From IMG/VR virus record IMGVR_UViG_3300045988_110999: a stretch of 64,000 bases of DNA; one strand, 5' to 3'. Positions 4,391 to 63,866 of this stretch are shown here, piece by piece. Positions within the stretch are counted from its first letter, which is position 1. Every line of letters starts with the position of its first letter. The translations under genes were made by a program, and so were the position numbers. The notes under the pieces were generated by a model. It was not told where the DNA came from and searched no databases. It was given only the letters and a program-made list of their open reading frames with translations. This stretch comes from a virus.

Positions 4391-7300
4391 TTACTTCACG
4401 AATTCCTGAGCCGTCTTGGACAGGTCCCTGACTTCCTGTGCCGCCGGGCTCTTTGCTTTCTTCGGAACGGTCTTGACTGAGTTTTCCATAGCTGTTGTAT
4501 CTTTCGTTTTCAGTAATTTCGCAATATCTCTGTCACTCATACCGTAAATCTTTAATGCCTCGTAGTTATCCGTATTCGGATTCTTGATATATTCTTTCTT
4601 CGCTTGGGACTTACATTCGTTATATTTCTGGGTAGCCAGTTTCATGACGCGGGTAGCATCCGAAGAGTTCGTCTCTGCCATCGTCCGGAAACCGAAAACC
4701 TTAAGGAGCTGGTCGTAGGGGGTGTATTTCGCTGTGATTTGTCCGTATTTGTTTTCTTTCTTACCGGTTACAGCTTCTTCAAGAGCACCCAATCTCGGAG
4801 CCAGAGACCGAATGATTCCGTTTCCTTGTGCGATATTGGATACGGTCGATACAGTAGGCCCAAGGTCGAACTGGATAGCATCGCCAAGGCCAATATTACC
4901 GGAAAGGTTGATACCAGCCAATGACGGAGCCCCATACAGAGCTACGTTGACCAAGGCTTTCTTCGCAGAGGAGCCACCGGCCCAGTTAATCATACCTTTC
5001 TTCAAAGCCATGACAGGGCTGTGTCCCGTCGTCTTATCGAAGATGTCGTCTACTAGATTAGCACAAGGCATACCCAAAGCGCCAGCCATGATGAACATGG
5101 GAACGAGGAACCGGATATTCTCTTCTTTTGTATTGTGGAGTATAAAGTTCAACGTGAACAGTGGATATTTCTTGAATTGGAGGAGGAGTTTACCTGTTAC
5201 CCCGGCTTCGGTCATAGCTAACGGAGAGTCTGTTACCGAGTAGTTGAAGTTCGTTTCTGTAACCAAGTCTTTTGTTTTGTTGAATACAAATTCTTTCCGA
5301 ACACTTTCCGTTGTAGGCTTAGGGGCTTTAAAAGGATAATGGTTCTGTCTAGCTCGTTCTTTCTTCGTCTGCCATGAAGTAATAGCTTCGTTCAGCATCA
5401 TCTTCTTTTCGTCGTGAGTGAGGGCTTTGAAGTCATCCATGGCTTTCAGGTAGCCACCGATTGCCGTTGCTTTACGCGCCCACTTATCACCAACGTTAAA
5501 GAACCACATAGACTTGTCTGTAAAGTCTTTGGCCGATTTGCCGAATAGGATTTTCTTATCAAAGACACCCGTAGGACGACCGAGGATTTCCGAGTCGATA
5601 GCTACGCTTCTTTCGTTGATTCCGATATAGTCATAAAGCTCTTTCCATTTAGCATCGTTTTTCGATCCGGTTGCTTCTTTGAGACCCGTCCGGAAGTATT
5701 TAGACATACCGACGAACTTGTTACCACCGAGTTTTGCGTTGGCGTTCAAGACCTGAAAAGCCTGTACAGCCAGTGAAGCCGGTCGGAACAAACCAAGTTT
5801 CAAGAGGTTCTGTAAAGACAGCGTGTCTTTGGCAAGGCCCGTGTAAAGGTTATGACCGTACCGTCTGCGGAGCAGGGAACCTATACCTGTCGGGTCTTTT
5901 TCTGCGAGCAGATTCATGTAGTCGTTAATCATCCGGTCGAGGGCTGTAACGGAAGTCGGGCGGTGATTAGCTTCGATGTACGTCTTTAAGAATTTCTGTT
6001 CGTTCGTCGTGGCTTCTTCCCGGATGTCTTTGTGGTACTTGCTCGTGTAGTAGGCTGTAGCTTCTGCGTAGAACTTCGCTTTACTGATGAAGTTGCCGGA
6101 GGTGATGAGGTAACGATATACCGAGTCTGCTACGTTCTGGCTGTAACCGCTGGCTCCGGAACGCTTCTGGAAGAACGGGTTGAACTGTTGTTTCATATTG
6201 GCACTGTTAATGATATTATTCAGTTCATCTTGGGAGATGGTAGCGTCCTTCTTCATCTTCTGGAGCTTTTTGTACAGACCCGTTACCCGAATCTGGGACT
6301 GGAGCTTTTTGACATAATTGTCATGGGCGGCACTGCCTGTATTACTCTTGTACCGGTTTACCTTTTCGATATGGGCCATAACATCCTTGACAGCGACCGT
6401 ATGATGTTCCTTGAACAGGGAATTGAATACCCTTTTGAGCGTTTCGTTATAGTTACCTGTATCATTGTTCGATTCACTGACGGAGATTAACCCTTCATCG
6501 TTCAGCTGTTTAAGCTGGTCTTCCGTCATCCGGTCGACCTTAGCCAATCTATCTCCGTGAGCCATAGCGTTGATAGGATTGATTTCTGCCCAGTAAGCTT
6601 CCTGCCCAGCTCGATTCAGTTCTTTTACTTTCTTAGAGGCTTCGGAGGCGTTATAGAAGCTGGCAGTGCGGACAAAGGTCTTAGTATCTTTATCTTTTAT
6701 CCAGACGACATAAGGGAGGTGGATTTGCGGGAAATAACCGTTAAGCTTCTTCGGGAGCTTGTAGTTGGCCCCGGATTCTTTTGCGGCCTGTACAGACGTT
6801 TCGTAGACCTTATCCATCATATCCCGGTACTTCATAAAGGAATTCATGACGTTATCCACCTGGGATGACTTCATCGGCTTATCCGAAAGGGACCGAATCA
6901 TGGAAACATAAGCTTCTTTTTCGTGGACTTTTGCGTATTTCTGAGCAGCAGCCTCGGATTTGAAAGCGGCACTGCCTTTGGGAAGAGCGAATACCGTGAA
7001 TCCTTTGCCGAAACCAGCGTTTTCGTTTTCTTCCGATTCCTGAATCATCTTTGACAGACGATATTTACCGGAGTTGCGGATTTCCTGCATCTTCTTGAGG
7101 GCTTCGGGAGCGCTGTCGTAGTGTTCGATAAATGCGTCGTGACGGACCGCAAGGTGGATTCCATCGTCGAGGTTGATGACTTGCATCGGGTCTCGGTGCA
7201 TTTCATTGGCTTTGAGGACGAGGGAGTCGAATACTTTCCGTTCGTCTTTGTCGAGGCCTTTGAATACGTCTAAGAATTTCTGAGAGTAATCACCAACGAA

Positions 7301-10300
7301 CTTTTCCATCTTGCGGCGGGCTCCGTCTGCTAACCGGTAGATAGGCATACCATCGGGGAAGTATTTTTTAAAGATATGAAGGGGGTCTTCAAATTGGCGT
7401 TGAAGGATACTCATGCGCTCTTTGCCGGGCAGGACACCGGCGGCGTACAGGGCCGCTCTTTGAGCTGTTTCTTCGTGAGTTGGGATACCTACCTTGTGTA
7501 GTTGTTTGTCGATACGGTTTTTGAGAGATAAAGCGTCTGAGGAGGGGGTGTTCCTATTTTCAATAAAGTTGAGAAAAGCTTTAACAGCCTTATCTGTGAA
7601 AGTACCATTTGAGAATGGTTTTAGAACCTTCGCTTTTTCCAAGATAGAGGCTCTAGCAGAGCTCAATGTTCCAGCTCCGTCGATGGCTTTGTTTGCCATA
7701 TTGATAATTCTGCCTTCTACACCTTTTCGCTGCGATTTGTATTGAGGAGATTCTAAAGATAATTTAAGCTGGGATAAAGTTTTAGCTACAAAAAGTTCAT
7801 CATACAACTCTCTATCTTTTCTCAATGAATTTTGTAAAGTTTTGCTTCTTGATATTTTATCGCATACGTAGTCAATGAATTCCGGATTTATTATAGCATG
7901 GTCGTATACAAGCATTTTCCAACTATTAGTAAATCCATCACCGTCTCGAAGTTGTTTAATCAATTTATTTATATATTTAACTTCAAAATCTTTTAGCGTG
8001 TCATTCTCTTTATCGACGAAATTATTAGACGTGATATAATTCATCCCGTATTCTTTATCGCCTAATCCCCGTTCAATAGCGGCGTGGAGAGAGTGAATAG
8101 TTTCATGGAGTATAGTAGGTGTATTTTTATCCCCGGATAATGCGTCTTGGAAGATTCTAATTACGTTGTATTCGGAGTAAGTTCTGCCGAGAGCTCCAGT
8201 CTTTTCCTTTTGCCCATCATAAACAAACACGGTTGCCATATCGTCAAGAGCTTCCGCAATTTTCGACTGCAACCGTGGTGGTAAATCCTCGAAGGAATCA
8301 TTTATTAATTTGTTTAAAGTGGGGCCGTCAATATTTACCCCTTCTGGAGTGGCCAAATGGATGGCTTTCTTTAGTTTGTTGCCAAGCTTGGTTAATCTAT
8401 ATTCGGGTCCAAGCCCCCCACCGGCTTCATGTACTTGTCCAGAAATTTTCTGTCCCTTTTCCTGATTTTTTTGCCTACTTCTTCCTGCGTCATTCCTTTT
8501 GGGAGGGTAAGAATTCCGCTGCACCACATCCCCCTCCAAATGCTCGGGTCTGTTACCCCCTCTGGCATCGGAGGTAGCTTCGTCGGTCTGTACATTCCCA
8601 TCTTCTCCTTTCACTGTATGTCCATCCGCTAGGAATTGTTCCTGGTCTTCCTTACTAAGTCGGTTGAAAATATCCTGAGATGTATCATCCGGGAAGAAAG
8701 ACCGAGAAGCACCTGTAACATGGACTTCATTTTCCTTTGTAACCTTAATGTTATCTGGTTCTGTATCTATATTATAGTAGTCTGCGAGATAATCCGCAAT
8801 ATCCTGTTTATCGGCATCCTTTAATTTAACTTTATCCCCACCGAAGGTTTCAATTTCCCCTTTTGGAATTTTAACATCCATGTCAGAAACAGAAGAAGTT
8901 ACCATTTCATCTTTATATTTGTAAGACAGTTGATTTGGAGTAGCTATTCTTTCTTCTTTGGTGTTTACTATATATTTCCCTTGATTATTTACCGTTTCTC
9001 TATCTTTGCTCTCCGTTGCTTCGGCTTTGGTCTTTGCATTCTCTGTGTCTGCTTGCTTCTTGTATTTTTCGTATTCAGCCTTAGCCTTACTTACTTCTTC
9101 TTGGGTGTATTTGCCAGATTTGACGAGGTTCTGAAGAGCTTTGCCACCAGGGAAATTCACGGAATTAGCTACCTTGGTAGGACCGTCGTTAACCCAGCTA
9201 ATAATGTCAGGTACGAGATGCTCTTTGACATTCCCTCTCTGTACATACATACCTTTGTACTTATCCTTACTAAGGGTGGCGGCACGTTCCCCGTATTTCT
9301 TTTCTAGTTCTTCGTGATGAAGGAAATAGTGAATAGGGTCGTTATTAGCCAGGTGCTTACCACGGATTTCCTTAGCAAGAGCCTTACCGGCGGAATGAAC
9401 AGCTTTTATTTCCTCTTTTGTCCCTTTTGATTTAGCTTCGTTTATGGTAGTTCTTGTCTTTTTAGCCTTTGTAGCCGGGGAGAGTTCTTTAACAGGTTTC
9501 TCTTTTGGTTTGGATTCACTTTCTCCACCTTGAGCTTTCGACATGATATCCAACAAATCTTGAGAGCTACCTTCAACCGGCTTGAGTATTGTTCTTTGAG
9601 CTTCTTTTTTGTTTTCGTAGCTCCTCTTTGCCCGTTCTCTATTCTTTTCGTCGGATACCTGCTTTGCCTGTCTATCTACTTCGGCTATCTTCTGTTCGAT
9701 GTTCTGGATGTGGTCCAGAGGGTCATATTTATCCTGTGTACGGGCGTTGACGTAGGAGGTAACAGCTTCCTTGACGGATTCACGATACTTCTTAGGGAAC
9801 TTGGAGAGGAGTCGGTTCATACCGAGACCTTTCTTGTAGTTAAAGAAGTTTTCTACGAAGTTATGGAGCTCTGTGACAGCCTCCTTGTCCCTACCTTTGT
9901 TGGCATACTGGGACAGCTTTCGAGCGAACGGTGATTGAATCGTTATTTCGTGTGATTTATCGACACGCTGTTTTTCAAAACCACGGACGGCATCTACTTC
10001 AGCAATCTTATCCCGTTTGGCAATCTTGGCATTGGCCATCTCGATCTGATGGCTCTGTTCCTTAACGGACAGGCCTTCCATCTTCTTAGCATCGAGTGTA
10101 ACCCCCCTGTTTTTAGAGCTGGAGTTAATGTGCTGTACCGTATCCATGTGATTCTTTTTGCTGACGATAGCTTGTGTCTTATCCCTATTTTCGGTAAGAG
10201 CTTTCCCGGAGAGAGCTTTAATCTGATTACGGATTTTAGGGGGAACTTCCCCACCGGCGCTTTTAGTTATAACCTGTTTCACGTCGTTAGGAAGAGAATC

Positions 10301-12430
10301 GAAATTACCATCGGAGGTGTAATATTTAGAATGGACGCCATTCTTAGCAAAGTCGTCCTTGATAGTCTGTTCTGTTGCCTTTTGTTTCCCTTTCTTTTGG
10401 GTTTCGTAGGAACGTGTTGCGGCGGCAGAACTTGCTCTCAGGGTCTTAGAGATACCGGCGTCGTCCGGGGTAAGGCCTAATTTATTAAGCCGTGCTTTAC
10501 CAGCGTCAGAAATATCTCCACCCTTGGGTTTGTAGAAGTCGCTATGAGTCCCATTCTGTTTGATATCCTCTTGGATAGTGTTTACGGCGGTAGCTACGTT
10601 CTTCGTATGCTGTTCTTTATCAGCTTTACGGTTCGCTACTTCCTGTACGTGGATTTCCTTGCGCTGTGCCGGGAAGAAACCGGTGTTCGGAGAGATGCTA
10701 TTGGCATTATCTAATTCCTGTTGGGAAATAGGAAGGCCCAGTTCATTTTTCTTTTGGATGAGAGCTTGAGCCGTAGCCTGACGGTAACGGTCGTTATTTC
10801 GTTGTTGGAGGATAGCGGCTACTGGCTGTGCGCTCTTATTGTCGGAGATGATAGGGATATTCGGCGATTCTATCATAGCTTTAACGAGGTCATCCCGTTC
10901 CGGGCCCGTCATCATTGCTGTCCCATGTACTGGATTATAGCCAAGGACGCTCGCTTCCCCACTATCAATCAGGTTAGCAATCGCCTGATTAGCTGAATAC
11001 TGGTCGTCGCTCTTCCCGTAAGCTTCCTGTTCAGCTAAATCATACTCCGTTGGGTTATTCATCTTGTCCATGAGCTGTTGCGTGAATTCTTTAGGGCCTG
11101 TTGGTACAGAAGGTTCACTGACTGGTTGAGTAGCTGGGGCTTCCTGAGAGTTCATGGGGATGGCATCTAAATCCTGCTGAGTAAGTTCAGTTTCGTCAAC
11201 GGGGATATTTTCTGTAACCGGAGCTTCGTCTTGAATAGACTCTTCGACATTATGGGTATCATCCTGTGCGTGAACGGCATCATCAATCGGACTGGGAACA
11301 ACCTTTTCTTCACCAGTAGTGTCTACCCGTCTTGCTCTACGATGGCCGATACCACCAAGGAGGCCCATCGGAATCATGCCCATACCAGCCATAAACATCT
11401 GGTCCTTGGATTCATCACCCATTTCAATAGGATTGTAGTTGATATCTTCCCCGGTAAGAGCATTATTCTGGAATTCATTCTGTAAGCCTTCTGTATAGGA
11501 TTCCATAGCCATACCCGGGACACTATGAGTAAGGAGTCGAGTAGAATATCTCTTGTCCGCAAAGTCTGCTACCTTGCCCCCAAAGTCAGACAGGGAGCCG
11601 AGAAGTCCTTTCCCAGCTTCCTGTTCGGTTGATTCTGTCGCTCTACTAAGGAGTCTCTTAGGAGCGTTTGCGGCTCCTTTCAACATGCTCATAGATACGG
11701 CATTAGATGCTACCGACAATCCAATATTATCCATGAAGTCAGTATCCATAGCATTACGAGCTTCTTCTTGTGTAGCCCCGTTCTGAATAGCCTGATTATA
11801 TGTATCGCCTGCTTCTGATGCGGCATCTAAATAACCACCAGCGATGTCACCTGCGATTTTTGGAGCGGCACTGAAAGCTGTTCTAGCAATCCTTGCCCCC
11901 GTACCCAATTCTCCAACATCAGACCCTACGGCAATAGCCTTCTCTAAGGTGGAAGCTGTCTTTGCCAATCTTGCGGCTCTGGCCGCTTTTAAACCAGCTC
12001 CTACTACCGCACCACCAATACCGCCGGTAGCGGCGCCGACGAGAGCAGTGGCGGCCATGTCAGGGGCGGAAGAACCAACAAGATTGAAGGCGGTGTAAGC
12101 AAGGCCGTTTGGGTCTGTGATGAAATCAAAGAGACTATCGTTGCGGGTGAACTGCCGTCTTGCCTGTCTACCTTGGGCAAGAGCATCCCCAAAATCCTCG
12201 AGACCTTGTCCGAACCCGAATTCCTGATTCATATAAGTACCGATAGAACCGAGACTTGACCCCAAACCATTCATAGCGCCGTTAATGGCACTATCTAAGA
12301 ATCCACCATCACCGAATGAATCATAAGTCCCTCCATCATCCGGGGCAATGACACTATCGAGGTATTGGTCATTTGCGGCGGCTCTATCGTATAAGGCCTG
12401 AAGGTAATCTTCTGTAGTTCTTCCTGCCAT
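4391..12430 (-). CDS. Giant (2679 aa) virion-associated/ejection-type multidomain protein with an internal HExxH motif
   Basis: A single uninterrupted ORF. It has a Gly/Ala-rich hydrophobic N-terminus, a very long K/E-rich low-complexity middle, LHETIHSLH (HExxH, codons 8093-8107, aa 1442-1446), and a C-terminal part with hydrophobic segments. It lies next to the peptidoglycan hydrolase genes in the structural block. Confidence 0.75.
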   Translation of the reverse strand: MAGRTTEDYLQALYDRAAANDQYLDSVIAPDDGGTYDSFGDGGFLDSAINGAMNGLGSSLGSIGTYMNQEFGFGQGLEDFGDALAQGRQARRQFTRNDSLFDFITDPNGLAYTAFNLVGSSAPDMAATALVGAATGGIGGAVVGAGLKAARAARLAKTASTLEKAIAVGSDVGELGTGARIARTAFSAAPKIAGDIAGGYLDAASEAGDTYNQAIQNGATQEEARNAMDTDFMDNIGLSVASNAVSMSMLKGAANAPKRLLSRATESTEQEAGKGLLGSLSDFGGKVADFADKRYSTRLLTHSVPGMAMESYTEGLQNEFQNNALTGEDINYNPIEMGDESKDQMFMAGMGMIPMGLLGGIGHRRARRVDTTGEEKVVPSPIDDAVHAQDDTHNVEESIQDEAPVTENIPVDETELTQQDLDAIPMNSQEAPATQPVSEPSVPTGPKEFTQQLMDKMNNPTEYDLAEQEAYGKSDDQYSANQAIANLIDSGEASVLGYNPVHGTAMMTGPERDDLVKAMIESPNIPIISDNKSAQPVAAILQQRNNDRYRQATAQALIQKKNELGLPISQQELDNANSISPNTGFFPAQRKEIHVQEVANRKADKEQHTKNVATAVNTIQEDIKQNGTHSDFYKPKGGDISDAGKARLNKLGLTPDDAGISKTLRASSAAATRSYETQKKGKQKATEQTIKDDFAKNGVHSKYYTSDGNFDSLPNDVKQVITKSAGGEVPPKIRNQIKALSGKALTENRDKTQAIVSKKNHMDTVQHINSSSKNRGVTLDAKKMEGLSVKEQSHQIEMANAKIAKRDKIAEVDAVRGFEKQRVDKSHEITIQSPFARKLSQYANKGRDKEAVTELHNFVENFFNYKKGLGMNRLLSKFPKKYRESVKEAVTSYVNARTQDKYDPLDHIQNIEQKIAEVDRQAKQVSDEKNRERAKRSYENKKEAQRTILKPVEGSSQDLLDIMSKAQGGESESKPKEKPVKELSPATKAKKTRTTINEAKSKGTKEEIKAVHSAGKALAKEIRGKHLANNDPIHYFLHHEELEKKYGERAATLSKDKYKGMYVQRGNVKEHLVPDIISWVNDGPTKVANSVNFPGGKALQNLVKSGKYTQEEVSKAKAEYEKYKKQADTENAKTKAEATESKDRETVNNQGKYIVNTKEERIATPNQLSYKYKDEMVTSSVSDMDVKIPKGEIETFGGDKVKLKDADKQDIADYLADYYNIDTEPDNIKVTKENEVHVTGASRSFFPDDTSQDIFNRLSKEDQEQFLADGHTVKGEDGNVQTDEATSDARGGNRPEHLEGDVVQRNSYPPKRNDAGRSRQKNQEKGQKISGQVHEAGGGLGPEYRLTKLGNKLKKAIHLATPEGVNIDGPTLNKLINDSFEDLPPRLQSKIAEALDDMATVFVYDGQKEKTGALGRTYSEYNVIRIFQDALSGDKNTPTILHETIHSLHAAIERGLGDKEYGMNYITSNNFVDKENDTLKDFEVKYINKLIKQLRDGDGFTNSWKMLVYDHAIINPEFIDYVCDKISRSKTLQNSLRKDRELYDELFVAKTLSQLKLSLESPQYKSQRKGVEGRIINMANKAIDGAGTLSSARASILEKAKVLKPFSNGTFTDKAVKAFLNFIENRNTPSSDALSLKNRIDKQLHKVGIPTHEETAQRAALYAAGVLPGKERMSILQRQFEDPLHIFKKYFPDGMPIYRLADGARRKMEKFVGDYSQKFLDVFKGLDKDERKVFDSLVLKANEMHRDPMQVINLDDGIHLAVRHDAFIEHYDSAPEALKKMQEIRNSGKYRLSKMIQESEENENAGFGKGFTVFALPKGSAAFKSEAAAQKYAKVHEKEAYVSMIRSLSDKPMKSSQVDNVMNSFMKYRDMMDKVYETSVQAAKESGANYKLPKKLNGYFPQIHLPYVVWIKDKDTKTFVRTASFYNASEASKKVKELNRAGQEAYWAEINPINAMAHGDRLAKVDRMTEDQLKQLNDEGLISVSESNNDTGNYNETLKRVFNSLFKEHHTVAVKDVMAHIEKVNRYKSNTGSAAHDNYVKKLQSQIRVTGLYKKLQKMKKDATISQDELNNIINSANMKQQFNPFFQKRSGASGYSQNVADSVYRYLITSGNFISKAKFYAEATAYYTSKYHKDIREEATTNEQKFLKTYIEANHRPTSVTALDRMINDYMNLLAEKDPTGIGSLLRRRYGHNLYTGLAKDTLSLQNLLKLGLFRPASLAVQAFQVLNANAKLGGNKFVGMSKYFRTGLKEATGSKNDAKWKELYDYIGINERSVAIDSEILGRPTGVFDKKILFGKSAKDFTDKSMWFFNVGDKWARKATAIGGYLKAMDDFKALTHDEKKMMLNEAITSWQTKKERARQNHYPFKAPKPTTESVRKEFVFNKTKDLVTETNFNYSVTDSPLAMTEAGVTGKLLLQFKKYPLFTLNFILHNTKEENIRFLVPMFIMAGALGMPCANLVDDIFDKTTGHSPVMALKKGMINWAGGSSAKKALVNVALYGAPSLAGINLSGNIGLGDAIQFDLGPTVSTVSNIAQGNGIIRSLAPRLGALEEAVTGKKENKYGQITAKYTPYDQLLKVFGFRTMAETNSSDATRVMKLATQKYNECKSQAKKEYIKNPNTDNYEALKIYGMSDRDIAKLLKTKDTTAMENSVKTVPKKAKSPAAQEVRDLSKTAQEFVK

Positions 12431-33455: not shown

Positions 33456-33731
33456 TTAGAGCTGTCGATTTATGATGGTATCGGGTTTAAAAGCCGACCC
33501 GATGATTTCTCCGTTATCCAAAAGGATAAGGGAACGCTTTGCCCGGCCTCTGGTTGCGTCAAAAAACATACCAGCATCCCGGCGTCTCTTATATAATCGT
33601 TCTACCATATTCCCGATAAACGGCATGATACAGGTGACTCGGGCCGTATTCACTACGAAACCGAAGCCGATATCCATGAACACACCGTTTTCAGGGTTGA
33701 TTTTCACTCTTTCTGTTGTTGCTGACTTCAT
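33456..33731 (-). CDS. RemA/DUF370-like small DNA-binding protein
   Basis: MDIGFGFVVNTARVTCIMPFIGNMVERLYKRRRDAGMFFDATRGRAKRSLILLDNGEIIGSAFKPDTIINRQL aligns with the RemA pattern (INIGFGN.V...R...I.....P.KR......G.LIDAT.GR..R.......H..LSA..P.T...R). Confidence 0.65.
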   Translation of the reverse strand: MKSATTERVKINPENGVFMDIGFGFVVNTARVTCIMPFIGNMVERLYKRRRDAGMFFDATRGRAKRSLILLDNGEIIGSAFKPDTIINRQL

Positions 33732-33739
33732 ATATACCC

Positions 33740-33880
33740 CTAACTATAAAATTTAGGAGCTTCGCCCTCTTCGGTATCATTCTCATAAGTGGCGATACCC
33801 ATAAGGACGAACAACTCCTGTAATTCTGAAACTTGTTCTTCAAGGAGTTCTATACGCTTTTCTAACTCTTCTTTGCTCAT
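33740..33880 (-). CDS. Small (46 aa) acidic coiled-coil protein
   Basis: ATG at 33880 with SD AAGGAGGG. The translation is MSKEELEKRIELLEEQVSELQELFVLMGIATYENDTEEGEAPKFYS. It falls below the ORF-track cut-off. Confidence 0.5.
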   Translation of the reverse strand: MSKEELEKRIELLEEQVSELQELFVLMGIATYENDTEEGEAPKFYS

Positions 33881-33899
33881 ATACCCTCCTTATAGATTA

Positions 33900-33974
33900 T
33901 GGCGGCGGTACTTAGAATCGAACTAAGACTAGCAGAGTCAAAGTCTGCTGTACTGACCGTTATACGATACCGCT
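33900..33974 (-). tRNA. tRNA-Gln (anticodon UUG), CCA encoded
   Basis: Hand-folded cloverleaf. Anticodon stem GCAGA/TCTGC, loop CTTTGAC. T-arm CTTAG-TTCGATT-CTAAG. Acceptor AGCGGTA/TACCGCC with an A1xC72 mismatch. Confidence 0.75.
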
Positions 33975-33977
33975 ATG

Positions 33978-34051
33978 TGGCATGGGTACAAGGACTCGAA
34001 CCAAGATTGACGGTTTTGGAGACCGTAGTCTTTCCATTAGACGATACCCAC
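33978..34051 (-). tRNA. tRNA-Trp (anticodon CCA), CCA encoded; T-stem has two U-U mismatches
   Basis: Acceptor GTGGGTA/TACCCAT. Anticodon stem ACGGT/ACCGT, loop CTCCAAA. T-arm CTTGG-TTCGAGT-CCTTG is imperfect. Confidence 0.6.
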
Positions 34052-34052
34052 A

Positions 34053-34140
34053 TGGCAGAGGAGGTGGGATTTGAACCCACGGTGCTGCTACGCACAGCTG
34101 TTTTCAGGACAGCCACCTTAATCCACTCGGACACTCCTCT
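34053..34140 (-). tRNA. tRNA-Ser (anticodon UGA), long variable arm, CCA encoded
   Basis: Acceptor AGAGGAG/CTCCTCT. Anticodon stem GCTGT/ACAGC, loop CCTGAAA. T-arm GTGGG-TTCAAAT-CCCAC. 88 nt, type II. Confidence 0.75.
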
Positions 34141-34144
34141 AATC

Positions 34145-34218
34145 TGGTTGCGGGGGATAGAGTCGAACTATCGTAACTGGGGAATGAGCCCAGCGTCCTA
34201 CCTTTAGACGACCCCGCC
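34145..34218 (-). tRNA. tRNA-Met (anticodon CAU) with initiator-like features
   Basis: Acceptor GGCGGGG...CCCCGCAACCA with a 1x72 mismatch. GGG/CCC closes the anticodon stem, loop CTCATTC. T-arm GATAG-TTCGACT-CTATC. Confidence 0.7.
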
Positions 34219-34896
34219 ATGCATCGGTTCTTTTCTCTCTTCGTGGAGCATCTCACTTCAAGAACCGGAAAGCGGTCGCCCTCGCAAGGGCGTGTACATC
34301 AAAAACCAGCGTCGATATCCACACCGTAGGACGATGCACGTGGTCCTTCCTAATATCCTACAAAACTAAGCCAGGCACAGTCGAAGCTATCTAGAATCGT
34401 CTCCGCTGTGTACCCGGTATCCAAACATCGGATACTCGGAAACGCTTTTTTCAAAGCGTTTAGCAAAGCTAAAGCATTTAGAGTGCTCTCCATATGTTTC
34501 AATTCCTACTCACTAACCGGGAATTAGGCATATTCTTTTGGGAGCCTGCCTAGGCTACCGACCAACACCCAGAGCGTGTTGAAGTCTTTTCACGCGCCGT
34601 TACGAAACCCTCTATACATAGGGAACTTCACGGTATGGTTTTTCCGGTGATTTCTGACCGGGCCAGCATCAAAATAGTCTTTCCAGTATTAACAGGCCGA
34701 CACTGTACCTGCCCCGGAGTTTAACGTCCTCCTGAGCGACGAGATATGGATGTTTAACGTCCTCCCGGACATCACCCCCTTTAGGTCATTTATGGCAACC
34801 TTTCTTTTTCAGAGGGCCTCACCTCCATCCTGAAACGTTTCAAAGAAACGTTTTGCGGTGCTGAAACACTTCGTGTTTCCCACTCGGAGTTATTTT
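34219..34896 (-). ncRNA. Candidate large structured ncRNA between the terL stop and the tRNA array (family unassigned; strand inferred)
   Basis: 678 nt with no plausible ORF but many perfect hairpins: 34225-34267, 34277-34292, 34440-34461 (9 bp), 34644-34661 and 34863-34879. Loops are A-rich when read on the minus strand. It is co-oriented with, and contiguous to, the tRNAs. Confidence 0.5.
34719..34765. repeat. Two copies of GTTTAACGTCCTCC spaced 33 nt apart inside the structured segment
   Basis: Exact 14-mers at 34719-34732 and 34752-34765. Confidence 0.8.
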
Positions 34897-37353
34897 TTAC
34901 ATAGAACCGGCCAACGGGATTTCGTCTGTGACGACCTTCTCGTAAGAAGCGACCGGAGCAAAATAAATCTGGTCCTGATAGGCAAGTGCGTCAATCAGGT
35001 CATCATGCAAGGACTTCGGGAAAGCAAGGAATTCGCTTTCCAATTCCCCAAGAAAGGACGCTCCCATCGGGAACCATACGGTGCCAGCTTTGAACCGGGG
35101 CTGTACGGCTTTGATACGCTCTTCTTTCTTTTCCTTGGCTTCCAAATCCTTGACCGTGAACCAGATATTCCTCTTTGGCATTTCCTTTTCTATGAAGTGG
35201 GATAACGCCGCTTGGTAAGCGACCTTTTCCATACCCACATAGACAGGATGGTATCGAGTGACCGCCTCGAAGATAGCGTCTATCGTCTGGGTCGGATCGA
35301 ACCTCCCATACTTTATATCCAATACGAACCAATGGTTTTCACTATTGACCCCCACAGTGCAGACTACGGTATAGTCCGCGGTTTCTTTCTGGGAAATAGC
35401 TAGGTCTACCGTAGTGAAGATGTTCATATCCTTCACATCAAGCTCTTCTTGCTTGTAGTATTTGAAGTATTCTTTCTTGAACAGCTGGGTTTCCGGGGAA
35501 ATAGCAATACACATCTTTTCCCGTTCCCATACATCCAGATTCCCGATTCGTCTAAAAGCTTCCCTTTCCGCTTTTATCTCTTCGGAGCTCCATCTTTCGG
35601 GCCATACACTGTTTCCTTCTGCGTCTAGGATAGGGATACGGACACCGGTAAACTTCAAATCTTTCTGGTTCTCTATGACTCGTTCTATCAGGCATTTTTC
35701 ACCCAGATTGTTCCCGATCATGAAGATTCTCGTCTTCTTCCCTAAGAACAATACGTCGGACAGGAACCATTCCCAGTCCCCTTCCTGTACGGTATCTGAC
35801 TTCGCATCTTCCAAGTCTTGTGGGTCGTCAATCAGGACAATAGACGGTCGGGCATCGTGAACGTTCAAACCACGGATAGCAGCCCCTTTGCCGTAAGCTT
35901 CAAAACGGACCCACATCTCTTCGTCATCTTTATCTTTTACGATGACCTCGAAACCGTTCTGGGACTGTTCTACGATACGTACCAGGTTCATGGATAGTAG
36001 CTCATTATTGAGCCATTCATCCTCAATTTCCTTTAACCGCTTACTGGCAGCTCTCTGCGTAGCCATGATAAAGACTACGTACTGCCTATCCTTGGAAGGA
36101 TATGTCAGGCAGTGCATCGGGAAGGCTCTTAGTACGACGCCGCTATTATGGGTAACGATGCAGCCAGTACCACATAAAAACAGCCCCGTAGGGCTGTCTA
36201 CCTTGATACACATGGTGGGGACGGACTCACATTTAGAGACTTTCTTGACACTCCTCATCAGAGTGCGTTTATCCTGAGTATCACAAATCAAATCCCTCTT
36301 CCTTTTTAACTGAGGGAATTTAACTGTGGTCTTGAACGACACATCATAATGTGGCTTACATTCTTTGCCGTAGAGCTTAGATGGTTTCTTTATAATAGTA
36401 GCCTTAATACCTAAGCTTCTGACTAAATATAAAGTCCCCATAGCCAATCTTTCATTGGTGTTTGTGAAAGTAACCGTCCCAGCCTTGCTACCAGCCTTGG
36501 CAATCGTACCGTCACTATCAATGAGACCGGCCAATAATTGCCACCTGTTTTCCTCGCTGTCGTAGTAATACTCTTCCGGGATGTGCTTGTCGTATATCAA
36601 CCCAAGGGATTTAAGCTCTTTCAAGAACCCTCCTTGGAACTTTATCGTCATTGCCGTTTTATCTTTGCGGCATGTCTTGGTTCCCCAGTCGATGTTCAGG
36701 AATGTCTCTTCAAAATCTTCCCCACCGCAAGTGATTTCGGCTGCTTTTGAATGACCATCTCCAAGCCATAACCCCAAATCATACGGAGAAATGATATGTT
36801 CTTTCCGAGGGTATTGTAAGGGCATAGCTAATGGTATACGGTATGCCTTTTCTTGATATCCTTTTTTAGGTTTTCCCAAATCCTGCTTTGCGTACATCTC
36901 CAGTGTGGTTACGATATTCCATCTACGTTTGTGCTTGTCCCATACGCTCCACAGATGTTCTGCATCAGCAGTGATTTCCTCCCCGTCGTCAAATTCGACT
37001 TTGAAGCAAGGATGATCGTAAAAAATCTCGGAGGTGCTACCAACTAACACTGGGTTCCCATTCTCATCAAATACGTAGTCCCCCGGCTTGATTTCCCCCA
37101 TCAGCTTATATCCACTAGGGGTCGGGATAGGGGTGAAAATCGAGATTGCTTTTCCTGACTCACGAAAGCCCTCTACAGCGTAGTGGTGCTTGCCTTTTAA
37201 CAGTATCTTTCCCCATTCCTCTTGGAATGAAGGGGTCTTTACTTCATCTTCGACGGGGAGGAATACTCTTCTGAATAACATAAGGTCATCTTTGGCGTCA
37301 CGGAACAGCTTCGCCATCATTACTTTCTTGTCCATATCTCTCTCCCCTTTCAT
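34897..37353 (-). CDS. terL: Terminase large subunit, interrupted by an intein
   Basis: Extein motifs are Walker A GFRESGK|S (split by the intein), Walker B SIVLIDDPQD, and nuclease-domain TTVDLAISQKETADYT and DDLIDALAY. Without the 335-aa insert the protein is 483 aa. Confidence 0.85.
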   Translation of the reverse strand: MKGERDMDKKVMMAKLFRDAKDDLMLFRRVFLPVEDEVKTPSFQEEWGKILLKGKHHYAVEGFRESGKAISIFTPIPTPSGYKLMGEIKPGDYVFDENGNPVLVGSTSEIFYDHPCFKVEFDDGEEITADAEHLWSVWDKHKRRWNIVTTLEMYAKQDLGKPKKGYQEKAYRIPLAMPLQYPRKEHIISPYDLGLWLGDGHSKAAEITCGGEDFEETFLNIDWGTKTCRKDKTAMTIKFQGGFLKELKSLGLIYDKHIPEEYYYDSEENRWQLLAGLIDSDGTIAKAGSKAGTVTFTNTNERLAMGTLYLVRSLGIKATIIKKPSKLYGKECKPHYDVSFKTTVKFPQLKRKRDLICDTQDKRTLMRSVKKVSKCESVPTMCIKVDSPTGLFLCGTGCIVTHNSGVVLRAFPMHCLTYPSKDRQYVVFIMATQRAASKRLKEIEDEWLNNELLSMNLVRIVEQSQNGFEVIVKDKDDEEMWVRFEAYGKGAAIRGLNVHDARPSIVLIDDPQDLEDAKSDTVQEGDWEWFLSDVLFLGKKTRIFMIGNNLGEKCLIERVIENQKDLKFTGVRIPILDAEGNSVWPERWSSEEIKAEREAFRRIGNLDVWEREKMCIAISPETQLFKKEYFKYYKQEELDVKDMNIFTTVDLAISQKETADYTVVCTVGVNSENHWFVLDIKYGRFDPTQTIDAIFEAVTRYHPVYVGMEKVAYQAALSHFIEKEMPKRNIWFTVKDLEAKEKKEERIKAVQPRFKAGTVWFPMGASFLGELESEFLAFPKSLHDDLIDALAYQDQIYFAPVASYEKVVTDEIPLAGSM
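36145..37149 (-). mobile_element. Class-3-type intein with a LAGLIDADG homing endonuclease, inserted in the terL P-loop
   Basis: aa 69-403. It starts with Ala directly after GK. Block B is ADAEHLW (Trp at B12). LAGLIDADG motifs are LGLWLGDGHS and LLAGLIDSDGTI. Block F is VPTMCIKV (Cys at F4). Block G is CIVTHN followed by Ser+1 (Thr at G5). Confidence 0.8.
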
Positions 37354-37474
37354 CCTATTCGGTTTCGTTTCTTCATTTGCTTTTCTACCTTTGTCAAATT
37401 GTCAAAATACCTCTTGATTTTTCAAAATTTTTTTCGTTTTCCTATTTTACGGTTATAGTACCCCCTTTTATTTT

Positions 37475-37503
37475 TTATTAATACTCACTTATATGAATAA
37501 ATC
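37475..37503 (+). promoter_or_regulatory. Plus-oriented member of the ATACTCACTT promoter family (weak hexamers)
   Basis: TTATTA-atactcacttatatgaa(17)-TAAATC. It has the same spacer motif and geometry as the strong promoters at 62583-62611 and 57457-57485. Confidence 0.4.
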
Positions 37504-37509
37504 TATCAT

Positions 37510-38340
37510 ACAAAGCCGTATTTGAACCATTAAAAGCGAATAAAACTAACAAAAAGGTCAAAAAAATGACGTACAAGAGAGGGGTAACTTCCCTAATTTC
37601 CGCCCGGCCAGCCAAGTACCCGAAAAAGCGAAGCCCCACCCTCTAGATCTATGTACACTGCACGAGAACCATTAGAATCCGTGGGAAAGGCCAGACGATG
37701 CCGATAAATGGCTCAACCATGCGGTTTTAAGGCCATCCAACGGCTATGCTATGATACAGTTGTCCCAAGGGAAAGGGCCAAGGGGAAAGCTCATAAGTGA
37801 GTCGATTACTCGGGTTCTAACCTTAGACCCCTAGCACGGGTCGCGGGACATCAGAACTTTGACAACTGCATATAGTAGGGCCGTGCGGCACGGCCGCCCC
37901 CTATAGTCCTCATTAGAAGGACGATAAGGAAGTCGATTGAGGGGACGACGACAGTGCCGCACGGTAGCACGAGGCAAGGGCCTATTGGCAAGGCCCGATA
38001 TGCCCGATAAAAACGGGCCAGCCTTAATTGCTCTGCCTAGGAACACCTCGAAAATGATATTGAGAGGTGGGCATGTGGCGACGTCGATGTACAGGCGGAC
38101 GTGAAGAGCGTCCACGTAATGCCGGTGTGAAGACGAGAAGCGGCCTAAAGCCCTACCCTAGCCGGTAGGTGCTTCACAAGGTGGTTAGAGCGGTTAAAAT
38201 CCTCCGCACCCATATGGGGAAAGAGGCAATACGTGCGTACCTGCTATGGGACGAAAATCCCATGACGTGAATCCTTGAATCGGCTGAAACAATGCCGATT
38301 CCTATAACGTCGAAAAGGGGCTTTCAGGCCCCTATACAAG
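37510..38340 (+). ncRNA. Candidate large structured ncRNA or very long structured leader (family unassigned; strand inferred)
   Basis: About 830 nt, visibly more GC-rich than its flanks, with no credible ORF. It has dense perfect hairpins: 37879-37895, 37978-37996, 38002-38018, 38097-38113, 38152-38169, 38246-38263, 38277-38301 and 38316-38333. Loops are A-rich on the plus strand, and there is an 11-nt long-range complement (37881-37891 vs 37954-37964). Confidence 0.5.
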
Positions 38341-38392
38341 GGAAGGAAGTTAGTTTTTACCCTCTAAAGGGGATTGCATGGAGGTATGCTGC

Positions 38393-38662
38393 ATGTACAA
38401 ATTGGTTAAAAAGTTCAAGAGTATTAGTGGAGAAATCCACATCAAAGAAAAGACTTATGAAGTTAATCGCAAGACCATTCTAAAAGTCGTCCGACAGGCG
38501 GCTAAAAAATACCGCCGTGATGAGGGCTGGGAAAATCTCCTGGCCGTTCCTAGGAAACAAGGGCGTGCTAAGGTATCGGGCCATTGTGAAATGAACCGCA
38601 CCTATATTGCTCGTCAATGCGCCGGTATCGGGCGCATTGATATCTATGTAGTAGAGTTATAA
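38393..38662 (+). CDS. Hypothetical early protein
   Basis: ATG at 38393, 8 nt after GGAGG. 89 aa, basic. Confidence 0.55.
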   Translation: MYKLVKKFKSISGEIHIKEKTYEVNRKTILKVVRQAAKKYRRDEGWENLLAVPRKQGRAKVSGHCEMNRTYIARQCAGIGRIDIYVVEL

Positions 38663-38734
38663 TTTATTCAACTTCCTTCCTTTATATAAGGGCCTGAATA
38701 TCCCTATAGGGGGATTGAAGACTAGAATGTTCAA

Positions 38735-49893: not shown

Positions 49894-51096
49894 CTATTTT
49901 ACATAAAAGCGTCTTGCGGCTTCCGACTGACGTTCTTTGGAATACGAGCTGATACGTTTCAAGTAGCCGATAACTCGTGTACCATAATCAACGTCATGAG
50001 AACCACATTCCGTGCAATGGTCTTCTGTGTTTACGTTGATATAACCACAATCATTGCAAATGGTAACTAAGCAATTATATGTCCAGTAATTTACTCCTAA
50101 TCTCCCGGCCACACAAATTAAATCATATGCCTGATTCTTGCTGAACAGCTGGGCGATGTTAAGATGACATGCGCTACCACCATCGAGGTACTTAGTGGTT
50201 TCTTTCCCATGAAGGAACAACTTATCGAGAATGGTTAAAGAATCGTTTTCAACTGGGAAGAAATAAGAGTTATAGCAGTCACGGGGTACGGACAACCCAT
50301 CATGCTTATCCCACTGAGCATTTTTAACGCCAAGGCCCTCCGCAGGCACATATTCGGTGTTAAATCGGAACCCATATACAGCCCTATCTGCCTTATTGAG
50401 GTCGTAAATAACTTTCAAGTACTTGGATACTTCTTTCTGATATGCTTCTTTATCAACTACGGGGGAGAATCCTTTATATTCCATAGCTTCAAGCATACCG
50501 TTGATACCAATAGTACCAAACTGAGTATCGAAGTTAATAAACTGAGCTGTGTAAGCCGGTAACATACCAAGCTCGATGTAATGTTTGATAACGGCTCTGT
50601 GAGCGGCAAGGTATTTATGAATACGAGAAATCAAGTCACCGAACGGTAACTTACCTTCATACTGCTGTACGTACCGGTTCATGTTGATGGTAATTACTCG
50701 GAAAGAGCCAGTTGATACACCGCCAGCCCCCAACGTGTAAGAGAAGGTATTGTCAGCCAGTTCGTTGCGGAGCCGGCAACACGATGCGAGAGAGTCAGCA
50801 CTACGAGACTCATAGATGAAGAAGGACAGGCCCTTAGACATTTCTTCGGCAAGGAACCATGCAAAGTCCTTATCTTTCGGTTTCTTATCCTCGTCCAGCA
50901 ACACGGCGGCGGTAAGTACCGGATAGGTAAGGAGTTCTTTTTTGCGCTCCATGCGGAACCATTCCATAAAGAATTCCTGTAACCGACTCAGACTCTTGTA
51001 ATCTGGTTCGGTGCCATCAGGGAAACGGAAACCGCCAAAGATACCATCAAAGTAGTATTTATCGAATACAGAGATATTCCAAAACACGGATTGATT
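49894..51096 (-). CDS. nrdD: Anaerobic ribonucleoside-triphosphate reductase, exon 2
   Basis: After splicing it begins NQSVFWNISVFDKYYFD. It ends with the Zn-ribbon CNDCGYINVNTEDHCTECGSHD and the glycyl-radical motif RVIGYLKR. Confidence 0.85.
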   Translation of the reverse strand, partial: NQSVFWNISVFDKYYFDGIFGGFRFPDGTEPDYKSLSRLQEFFMEWFRMERKKELLTYPVLTAAVLLDEDKKPKDKDFAWFLAEEMSKGLSFFIYESRSADSLASCCRLRNELADNTFSYTLGAGGVSTGSFRVITINMNRYVQQYEGKLPFGDLISRIHKYLAAHRAVIKHYIELGMLPAYTAQFINFDTQFGTIGINGMLEAMEYKGFSPVVDKEAYQKEVSKYLKVIYDLNKADRAVYGFRFNTEYVPAEGLGVKNAQWDKHDGLSVPRDCYNSYFFPVENDSLTILDKLFLHGKETTKYLDGGSACHLNIAQLFSKNQAYDLICVAGRLGVNYWTYNCLVTICNDCGYINVNTEDHCTECGSHDVDYGTRVIGYLKRISSYSKERQSEAARRFYVK

Positions 51097-62747: not shown

Positions 62748-63866
62748 ATGGCACGAAAGAGAAGCAACGGAGAAGGAACCGTATATGTAAGGAAAGATGG
62801 GACTTATTGCGCCCAAGAGACGATAGACAAGAAACGAATCACCGCCTATGGAAAGAACAAGACCGAGGCATTAGCCAAGCTCAAGAAGAAGATAAAGGAT
62901 AAAATGACCGCTGGCGAAGTTATCTCCTCCAACAAGGATATAACAGTAGCCCAATATCTACCTTATTATGTAAGTGGAATTCCACTCACTAACAAAAGCA
63001 CTAAGGAAAATTATGGTTCTATTCAACGCAGAATCGCGTCACTAACTGGAGAATTAAAATTATCAAAAGTCACGAACTCCACTCTAAATAGTTTCGCAGT
63101 CAATATGAAAAGCCTAGAATATGCAGACAGCACAATCCACTCAACCGTAAAATTCTATATGAGAGCTTTAAAACAGGCTCAGAGAGAAGGTTACATAAGT
63201 CAGAACATAAACCTTGATTACATCGCCCATCGCAAACAGAAACCATACATACTCCCTAAAGTCAATGATGTTATAAAGTCTTTGAAAGAGATTCGCCCCA
63301 TTGGTATGAGATACTTAGGTTTATTTTGCTTATATACAGGCCTTAGACGGGGAGAGTTGATCGGATTAAAATGGAAAGACATTGATGAAGAGAAGGGAAT
63401 TATTACGGTTAAAAGAAATTACACCTGTGAGGTATCATCCCACCGGCTATACATAAAGTCTCCAAAGAATGGATTGGCTGGGCAGATAGTACAAATACCT
63501 GACGATGGAATGAAGTTGCTTACGTTCCTCAAAGAGGAGTATAAGAAAGCAAACATTCATAGTGAATTTGTTTTCTGTGACAAAAACGGGAGACACCTTC
63601 GTCCGGATAGTGTAACAGCTACACTCCACCGGGCCATGTTACGGGTGTCTCCCAAGGGGTCGGTTCATATATTAAGGCATCTTCATGCCACGATTTTAGC
63701 AAAAGAAGGGGTTCCTTTACGGACTATTTCAAAGCAGCTAAGGCACTCGTCTATCGTTACAACGTCTATCTACATTAACGCTATGGAAAACGAAGTCTAC
63801 GACGAAATTAAAGGGGTCTCTTTACCCGGTTGCAGTAGTGTTGCAGTAGACCATAAAGAAAAATGA
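62748..63866 (+). CDS. int: Tyrosine recombinase (phage integrase)
   Basis: SAM-like N-domain plus catalytic-domain motifs: LYTGLRRGELIGLKW (Arg I), HILRHLHATILAKEG (HxxR), LRHSSIVTTSIYIN (His/Tyr). Confidence 0.9.
   Translation: MARKRSNGEGTVYVRKDGTYCAQETIDKKRITAYGKNKTEALAKLKKKIKDKMTAGEVISSNKDITVAQYLPYYVSGIPLTNKSTKENYGSIQRRIASLTGELKLSKVTNSTLNSFAVNMKSLEYADSTIHSTVKFYMRALKQAQREGYISQNINLDYIAHRKQKPYILPKVNDVIKSLKEIRPIGMRYLGLFCLYTGLRRGELIGLKWKDIDEEKGIITVKRNYTCEVSSHRLYIKSPKNGLAGQIVQIPDDGMKLLTFLKEEYKKANIHSEFVFCDKNGRHLRPDSVTATLHRAMLRVSPKGSVHILRHLHATILAKEGVPLRTISKQLRHSSIVTTSIYINAMENEVYDEIKGVSLPGCSSVAVDHKEK

Follow-up and report, generated by a model that had tools for sequence, protein, structure and literature searches.

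The intergenic region upstream of terL, the large terminase gene, in the phage of IMG/VR record IMGVR_UViG_3300045988_110999 holds a predicted RNA structure of at least 650 nt, encoded on the plus strand, which is conserved, supported by covariation and without a known family. The record was analyzed as a stretch of 64,000 nt (hereafter, the window), corresponding to positions 1889-65888 of a 65,984-nt metagenomic contig (ENA ERZ28572813, BRIT16-1 scaffold_205); locus L074 is 100% identical. The structured block lies in a gap of ~1,040 nt between the terL start codon at 37353 and the first plus-strand gene (gene 1), whose start is placed at 38393. The gap is overlong and non-coding, as a first-pass annotation of the sequence had proposed, no long credible open reading frame (ORF) being found between the two genes. 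We believe, with a probability of about 0.55, that the block is the gene for a large multi-domain plus-strand RNA of about 650-800 nt, a new phage RNA of the GOLLD or ROOL kind. The approximate limits of the RNA would be 37690 and 38350, the start moving to about 37580 if a conserved element at the 5' end is transcribed as well. The block most likely represents a new family of large phage RNAs, whose known distribution is very narrow.

Support for an RNA comes from comparison with homologous phages. The first-pass annotation had proposed a structured RNA here and had named a lack of compensatory changes among homologues as evidence against it. Homologues were found. They have many compensatory changes, in long-range as well as local helices, and a bias toward G·U points to the plus strand. 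Conservation and covariation were assessed on six distinct sequences from ENA and Logan metagenome assemblies. RNAalifold predicts 162 pairs in the full alignment, 32 of them with compensatory double changes. The most ornate part is a 3' domain (37963-38333, plus strand) of 16 helices and 108 pairs, in which two long-range helices, H1 and H5, accompany a multi-branch core (H6-H10) and a series of hairpins (H11-H16); 98.4% of the alignment cells at these pairs are paired. Double changes are present in 21 of the 108 pairs, compared with 6.7±1.9 in column shuffles (none of 500 reached 21) and with 0-5 pairs in a slid control, in which the partners were displaced by 1-3 columns. The helices with compensatory changes include some that span 160-270 nt. 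H5 (38024-37/38183-97) has 15 bp with double changes in five pairs, and covariation also supports H1 (37963-71/38232-41) and the local helices H4, H6, H9, H10, H13, and H15. The consensus energy of the 3' domain is -142.6 kcal/mol on the plus strand and -112.2 on the minus strand, and in the plus-strand structure G·U cells are far commoner than A·C cells (57 vs. 7). These two asymmetries indicate that the RNA is on the plus strand, in the same sense as gene 1. Compensatory changes, a missing coding signal and strand-specific tolerance of G·U are together what is expected of a structured non-coding RNA in general, and the block shows all three.

The block is also better conserved than the protein gene next to it. 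Identity between relatives is 83-95% in the 3' domain (37960-38350), 84-93% in the 5' module where complete, and 66-84% in the middle domain (37761-37850). Over all positions of gene 1 it is 71-83%, with 80-92% at codon positions 1 and 2 and 50-69% at third positions. The difference between codon positions identifies gene 1 as a real gene. Since the 3' domain exceeds both the whole of gene 1 and its third positions in identity, the non-coding block is under stronger purifying selection than the adjacent protein gene. The least conserved stretch is the spacer between the RNA and the ribosome-binding site (RBS) of gene 1, at 60-86% and with indels.

The relatives were reached through the neighboring genes. 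A blastn search with the gap against 50,697 phage records gave no match. TerL searches (IMG/VR, metagenomes, and GTDB genomes) gave relatives at 51-96% TerL identity, in which nhmmer recovers just 90-330 nt of the gap, around window positions 37551-37735. Gene 1 used as a query in IMG/VR found no relative; seven homologues of its protein are known from our searches (P0002-P0008, 75-85% identity), and the nine contigs of gene 1 homologues (L076-L084) align over the gap at 78-89% nucleotide identity, over however much of the gap each contig contains. In TerL relatives at 87-88% identity (L085-L089), the 5' module is shared and is followed by unrelated sequence. A covariance model of the core, R1 (38022-38199), matches only the six close sequences among 31 sources. 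When IMG/VR was scanned for three invariant motifs of the 3' domain, the outcome was empty or at chance level, the nine matches to CCCTATACAAGGGAAG failing the profile. The 3' domain is thus confined to the closest clade, and the locus reads as a conserved 5' element joined to interchangeable downstream cassettes. Literature on the conserved motifs and on large phage RNAs yielded nothing matching.

Composition and local folding agree with this picture in most respects. The GC enrichment noted earlier is confirmed: the GC fraction is 0.53-0.57 over 37600-38300 and 0.28-0.32 at 37300-37600, with a mean of 0.515 for the block and 0.438 for the whole window. An earlier count of at least eight perfect hairpins fell to six under the criterion of a stem of 6 bp or longer with a loop of 3-10 nt, shorter stems being left out. 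The excess itself stands, dinucleotide shuffles having 1.2±1.1 such hairpins and none of 300 reaching six. The z-score of the minimum free energy (MFE) of the block is -4.9 on the plus strand and -5.7 on the minus strand. The nested hairpin TATAG...CTATA at 37871-37905, with inner stem GGCCGTG/CACGGCC, is present as described, and the 11-mer GTGCCGCACGG (37954-37964) is the exact complement of 37881-37891. The two had been taken together as a hint of alternative or pseudoknot pairing. They are not a conserved pseudoknot and belong to a variable stem, CCGUGCGGCAC/GUGCCGCACGG (37881-37964, plus strand), whose exactly complementary 11-nt arms close a 57-nt insertion that is found in the window only and overlaps the nested hairpin. 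All relatives have a short hairpin (GGCAGUG-GUGACA-GCACU) at this site and lack the 57-nt insertion; L079 and L080 carry a different insertion further upstream.

Upstream of the 3' domain, the RNA is predicted to have two smaller plus-strand domains. The first conserved hairpin domain (37685-37745) contains AAAUGGCUCAACCAUGCGGUUU and is built around AAUGGCUCAACCAUGCGGUUU. RNAalifold places its helices at 37689-92/37742-45, 37697-702/37731-37, and 37706-12/37721-27. It is common to the L085 and L002 types and has an invariant U·G pair as well as G·U variants on the plus strand. The middle domain (37761-37850) is less conserved and is closed by UGUCCC/GGGACA. Its helices (37761-66/37845-50, 37774-77/37821-24, 37782-84/37815-17, and 37828-30/37838-40) include compensatory pairs at 37829/37839, 37830/37838, 37782/37817, and 37784/37815. 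The RNA also contains imperfect internal direct repeats, 37684-37708 vs. 37987-38011 and 37793-37847 vs. 37924-37980 (for example GGAAAGGCCAGACGATGCCGATAAA and GGCAAGGCCCGATATGCCCGATAAA). Both copies of the first repeat pair hold a small hairpin with a GAUAAA(A/U) loop. The repeats may be a motif for tertiary contacts or protein binding, or the trace of an old duplication.

Gene 1 (38393-38662, plus strand) encodes a basic protein of 89 aa and is preceded by an RBS, GGAGG, at 38380-84. The protein has no match in Pfam, PHROG, PADLOC or PDB, and its AlphaFold2 model is poor (predicted local distance difference test, pLDDT, 56). Two sequences that bracket the gene are predicted to pair with each other. 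The left arm (38323-38351, plus strand) overlaps the loop and 3' strand of H16, and the right arm (38670-38698, plus strand) lies directly past the gene 1 stop codon. The duplex and H16 must be mutually exclusive because one arm is common to both. The arms pair over 29 positions with one or two mismatches and are present in 11 of 11 loci. Three positions of the arms (6, 7, and 26) have compensatory changes, of the kinds A:U to G:C, G:C to A:U, and G:C to A:U, and a C·A mismatch is conserved. The duplex dominates the predicted fold of 38305-38715 (z = -6.4), being present in the MFE and centroid structures alike; counts of G·U and A·C do not fix its strand. No comparable bracketing repeat was found in the L085, L089, and L002 types. 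The possibility that the 29-bp repeats delimit an invertible DNA segment was rejected, the orientation of gene 1 being identical in all 11 loci.

Past the right arm, L078 has an intrinsic-terminator-like 12-bp hairpin, AGCTCATGACC...GGTTATGGGCT, followed by a T-run (1208-1235), and by eye the same sequence is recognized at this place in eight further relatives. The window has CCCTATAGGGGG at 38700-38720 in place of the hairpin, and no T-run. A terminator-like hairpin after gene 1 suggests that the RNA and gene 1 form one transcription unit.

The start of that unit is possibly marked by a promoter-proximal block, TTAATACTCACTTATATGAATAAATCTATCATACAAAGCCGTATTTGAACC... (37478-37550, plus strand), which is near-invariant in the window, L078, L081, and L076 and is partly common to the L085 type. 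We infer that it may be the promoter or start region of a rightward transcript; no match to the sigma-70 consensus was found in it. The first-pass annotation had recognized here a plus-oriented copy of a promoter motif recurring in the phage. The motif is present at 37478-37503 and conserved in relatives. Its recurrence in the window is not clearly above chance, with only self-matches for the 21-mers at up to three mismatches and seven matches for the 15-mer core where 2.9±1.9 are expected.

These elements can be combined into a model. Rightward transcription would begin at a promoter in the conserved 37478-37690 region and would include gene 1, the two forming a single cassette. The 29-bp duplex would serve as a processing or stability site of the RNase III type, and would either separate a stable RNA of ~650-770 nt from the gene 1 message or couple both. 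Rather than as a simple on/off leader, the RNA would act as a folded molecule itself, as a scaffold or ribonucleoprotein (RNP), possibly with the basic gene 1 protein, or as an RNA directed at the host. Such an independent function is favored by its size, its complexity, its conservation above that of gene 1 and the apparent lack of a conserved expression platform. ROOL in two relatives of the same phage group may be counted as a precedent. More tentatively, and at somewhat under even odds, the RNA may belong to an undescribed ornate class unrelated in fold or sequence to ROOL, GOLLD, and OLE. It would be freed at the duplex and act as an RNA machine or scaffold, maybe self-assembling or forming an RNP with the gene 1 protein, within a swappable RNA-plus-gene cassette in a hypervariable region of ROOL-carrying temperate phages.

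The sites in T7 early mRNA and the stems flanking 16S and 23S rRNA in their precursors are processing stems of RNase III. They are likewise imperfect duplexes with internal mismatches that flank a functional unit. They differ from the present duplex in that the latter brackets a protein gene and not a stable RNA, and in that one of its arms belongs also to a hairpin of the upstream RNA. The predicted 29-position duplex exceeds the approximately 20 bp of double-stranded RNA within one transcript that is expected of an RNase III-type stem.

The block is not a member of ROOL or GOLLD. A search with Rfam covariance models, recommended in the first-pass annotation, was carried out at the gathering score over the whole window and at E≤10 on 37300-38450 (with relaxed filters) and 33700-35000. 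It gave four tRNAs and otherwise chance-level matches, with no family match in the block. In particular, ROOL (RF03087; gathering score 99.1 bits) has no match in the whole window, nor at E≤10 in 37300-38450. As a positive control, the same tool finds ROOL in relatives at 217.7 bits (L085) and 205 bits (L087). Membership is excluded because even the permissive search is silent where relatives score 205-218 bits. GOLLD (RF01998) has no covariance-model match to the conserved 3' region. Group I and group II introns have no Rfam match either, and the block is intergenic and interrupts no gene.

ROOL is an elaborately folded RNA of ~580 nt from phages and prophages, with no known protein partner and no known function, and GOLLD is an RNA of ~800 nt from the same sources, modular with one conserved and one variable half; both often occur near tRNA islands and form RNA-only cages (PMC12286853). 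The block resembles ROOL in being a large folded phage RNA that is GC-enriched relative to its surroundings and has A-rich loops. It is found in a phage, as is expected of ROOL, and is not adjacent to the tRNA island, which lies 3.3 kb away beyond terL (33900-34218, minus strand, four tRNAs). ROOL occupies the late-gene strand within the tRNA island, downstream of terL, whereas the block is upstream of terL on the opposite strand. Unlike ROOL, the block directly precedes a small protein gene bracketed by a duplex, and it has no sequence or structure match to ROOL and a very narrow distribution of six distinct sequences. The likeness to GOLLD is in size, phage origin, and modularity. In GOLLD the universal part is the 3' region, whereas here the wide conservation is 5' and the ornate 3' domain is clade-specific; nor is the block adjacent to tRNAs.

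Two large structured RNAs flanking terL had been called unusual for one phage. A large RNA on the other side of terL is not unique to this phage, as a bona fide ROOL is found there in two relatives. The full-length copies (L085:7693-8272 and L087:3806-4383) are directly downstream of terL in the tRNA island, and the TerL proteins are 87% identical. Within the group, ROOL is thus found on one side of terL in some phages, and in the window and its closest clade the other side is occupied by a different large RNA, on the opposite strand. At the place of ROOL, the window has a non-coding block of 678 nt (34219-34896, minus strand, z = -2.45). It has no Rfam match at E≤10 and is neither ROOL nor related to the RNA at 37690-38350. 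Its two ends are common to L076 and L041, its middle ~360-420 nt matches neither, and part of the middle matches L089 and L090 at about 70%.

Several observations weigh against an independent RNA. The covariation statistics rest on few events, as there are six distinct sequences from one narrow clade. That the RNA is a discrete species, and where it ends, is read from sequence. There is no terminator between the RNA and gene 1, so the RNA would be, at least initially, a 5' leader. Cleavage of the duplex by RNase III is a conjecture. Since gene 1 served to find the relatives, its co-occurrence with the RNA is in part a product of ascertainment. A helix of 7 bp between 37754-60 and 38388-94, in the start-codon region, is also predicted by RNAalifold; it has no double changes and would fit cis-regulation. 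Finally, R1 has no distant homologue in the 31 sources, and since it finds nothing in the more distant relatives the 3' domain is dispensable for the phage group.

The strongest competitor is that the block is an exceptionally long cis-acting 5' leader, which remains attached to the gene 1 message and controls its translation or stability. We consider this possible and clearly less probable than an RNA with its own function. A ligand, temperature or a protein would be the input (for example, the gene 1 product in autoregulation), and the bracketing duplex and the 37754-60/38388-94 helix would be the outputs. The RNA shares its strand with gene 1 and stops 45-60 nt short of it without an intervening terminator, and 10 of 10 relatives with a gene 1 homologue carry the adjacent part of the RNA, as far as their contigs reach. 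The left duplex arm lies within the last hairpin of the RNA and pairs past gene 1, coupling the two physically, and the predicted helix covers the start codon. Against this, that helix shows no compensatory change and is mismatched in the window itself, and no known leader comes near a size of ~650 nt with more than 20 helices. The protein that would be regulated is less conserved than the RNA. The RBS-proximal spacer, the least conserved stretch, has indels, which speaks against a conserved expression platform. Long bacterial leaders, such as the T-box, the cobalamin riboswitch, and ribosomal-protein leaders, are likewise structured, upstream of and co-oriented with a gene. The block is 2-4 times larger than these, has no Rfam match, and shows no conserved terminator/antiterminator or platform that sequesters a Shine-Dalgarno sequence.

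A site that acts as DNA (pac/cos, a replication origin, attP, or an operator array), with hairpins that are incidental or function in single-stranded DNA, would account for a block that adjoins terL and lies between divergent operons. It would also fit the element at 37551-37650, which is conserved with terL at a roughly fixed 230-500 nt, is without covariation and is a good candidate for such a site. The contigs of several relatives terminate within 250-1300 nt upstream of terL. For the remainder of the block this explanation is improbable: compensatory changes in 37685-38350 keep helices up to 270 nt apart, and a strand-specific G·U:A·C ratio of 57:7 is not needed by duplex DNA sites. Genome termini or direct terminal repeats in the gap were rejected on the same covariation and on the position of terL, which varies among the longest contigs and leaves no consistent terminus. 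More doubtful still is that the block belongs to a known large RNA family (ROOL, GOLLD, a group I or II intron, or OLE) and has diverged too far for the covariance models to recognize. The phage context, the ROOL- or GOLLD-like size, the A-rich loops, and the ROOL genes of two relatives would suit it. The silence of every model at E≤10 with relaxed filters over 37300-38450 argues otherwise, as do the 205-218 bits given to ROOL in L085 and L087 by the same tool and a position off the tRNA island on the opposite strand. A decayed or unrecognized protein gene is hardly credible. ORFs of 55-108 codons do exist on both strands, but their frames and extents vary among relatives, changes are concentrated as paired substitutions in stems, and there is no 3-nt periodicity (46/36/34 variable columns per codon position). 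The minus-strand ORF at 37831-38115, already suspected to be non-genic, exists in the window and keeps its frame and extent in no relative.

The element at 37551-37650 (GGTCAAAAAAAT...TAACTTCCCTAATTT...GCGAAGCCCCACCC; strand not assigned) is the most widely conserved part of the locus. It is detected by nhmmer in all TerL relatives at 75-88% identity, and its distance upstream of terL is 230-500 nt in every related phage type. Part of it is an invariant 11-mer, TAACTTCCCTA, which has one mismatch in L016 (56% TerL identity). In a survey of the window and L001-L011, L043-L047, L085-L089, L096, and L101, the 11-mer is preceded by GGTAAAAAAAT-type or TTTTTACTAAAAT-type motifs, with tandem duplicates in L003, L076, L043, and L007. 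This region resembles an array of promoters or operators serving the divergent operons. In 37551-37650 no structure is supported by covariation, and the element may for this reason be DNA rather than RNA; it would be either a regulatory site separating the divergent operons or the outermost 5' part of the leader. Three other candidates were rejected. A 26-aa peptide with an ATG at 37578 has no conserved start codon. A closing helix between TAACTTCCCTA (37585) and GGAAGTTA (38345) is perfect in the window, but other types have no complementary partner and there is no covariation. A minus-strand terminator at the element is predicted in L078 and L076 and is absent in the window and the L085 type.

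The surrounding genes are those of a tailed phage and include an SU10-type portal, a major head protein, and a scaffold protein, together with a primase-helicase and NrdD fragments. The phage is probably temperate, as it has an integrase (62748-63866) and an Ant/Rha regulator. The phage group includes at least one member from a pig-gut metagenome and is described as temperate phages. L085 lies on a contig of 237,063 nt (ROBE23-1 scaffold_17), a size that suggests an integrated prophage. terL (34897-37353, minus strand) encodes a terminase of 818 aa in total with an N-terminal intein, ~70 residues in, that has a LAGLIDADG homing endonuclease. The intein is also present in P0010 and P0014-P0016, and the close relatives L076, L085, and L089 have TerL proteins of 471-496 aa without it. 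In the structural/late operon, an ORF of 2,679 aa (4391-12430, minus strand) has no PHROG family match at E≤1e-5. An ORF of 397 aa (49894-51087, minus strand) matches only parts of the anaerobic ribonucleotide reductase NrdD, over three separate stretches, and may be a split or truncated gene; no intron model matched there in the Rfam scan.

To our knowledge, few bacterial or phage RNAs longer than approximately 500 nt have conserved elaborate folds: the rRNAs, RNase P, group I and II introns, OLE, HEARO, GOLLD, and ROOL. The last three of these families have given recent unexpected results, including RNA-only nanocages (PMC12286853). If the RNA proposed here is real, another unrelated family joins this short list of large ornate RNAs. 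Part of its appeal is a defined genetic partner, a small basic protein whose gene is bracketed by a long-range duplex. The RNA would also belong to a phage group that carries ROOL as well, in a compact system of one promoter, one RNA and one 89-aa gene. If it is a leader instead, it would far surpass in size and complexity every leader known so far for a gene of bacteria or phages. The modular layout of the locus, in which a conserved 5' element is joined to swappable downstream cassettes, shows that hypervariable regions of phages can trade structured RNAs as cargo, like accessory protein genes.

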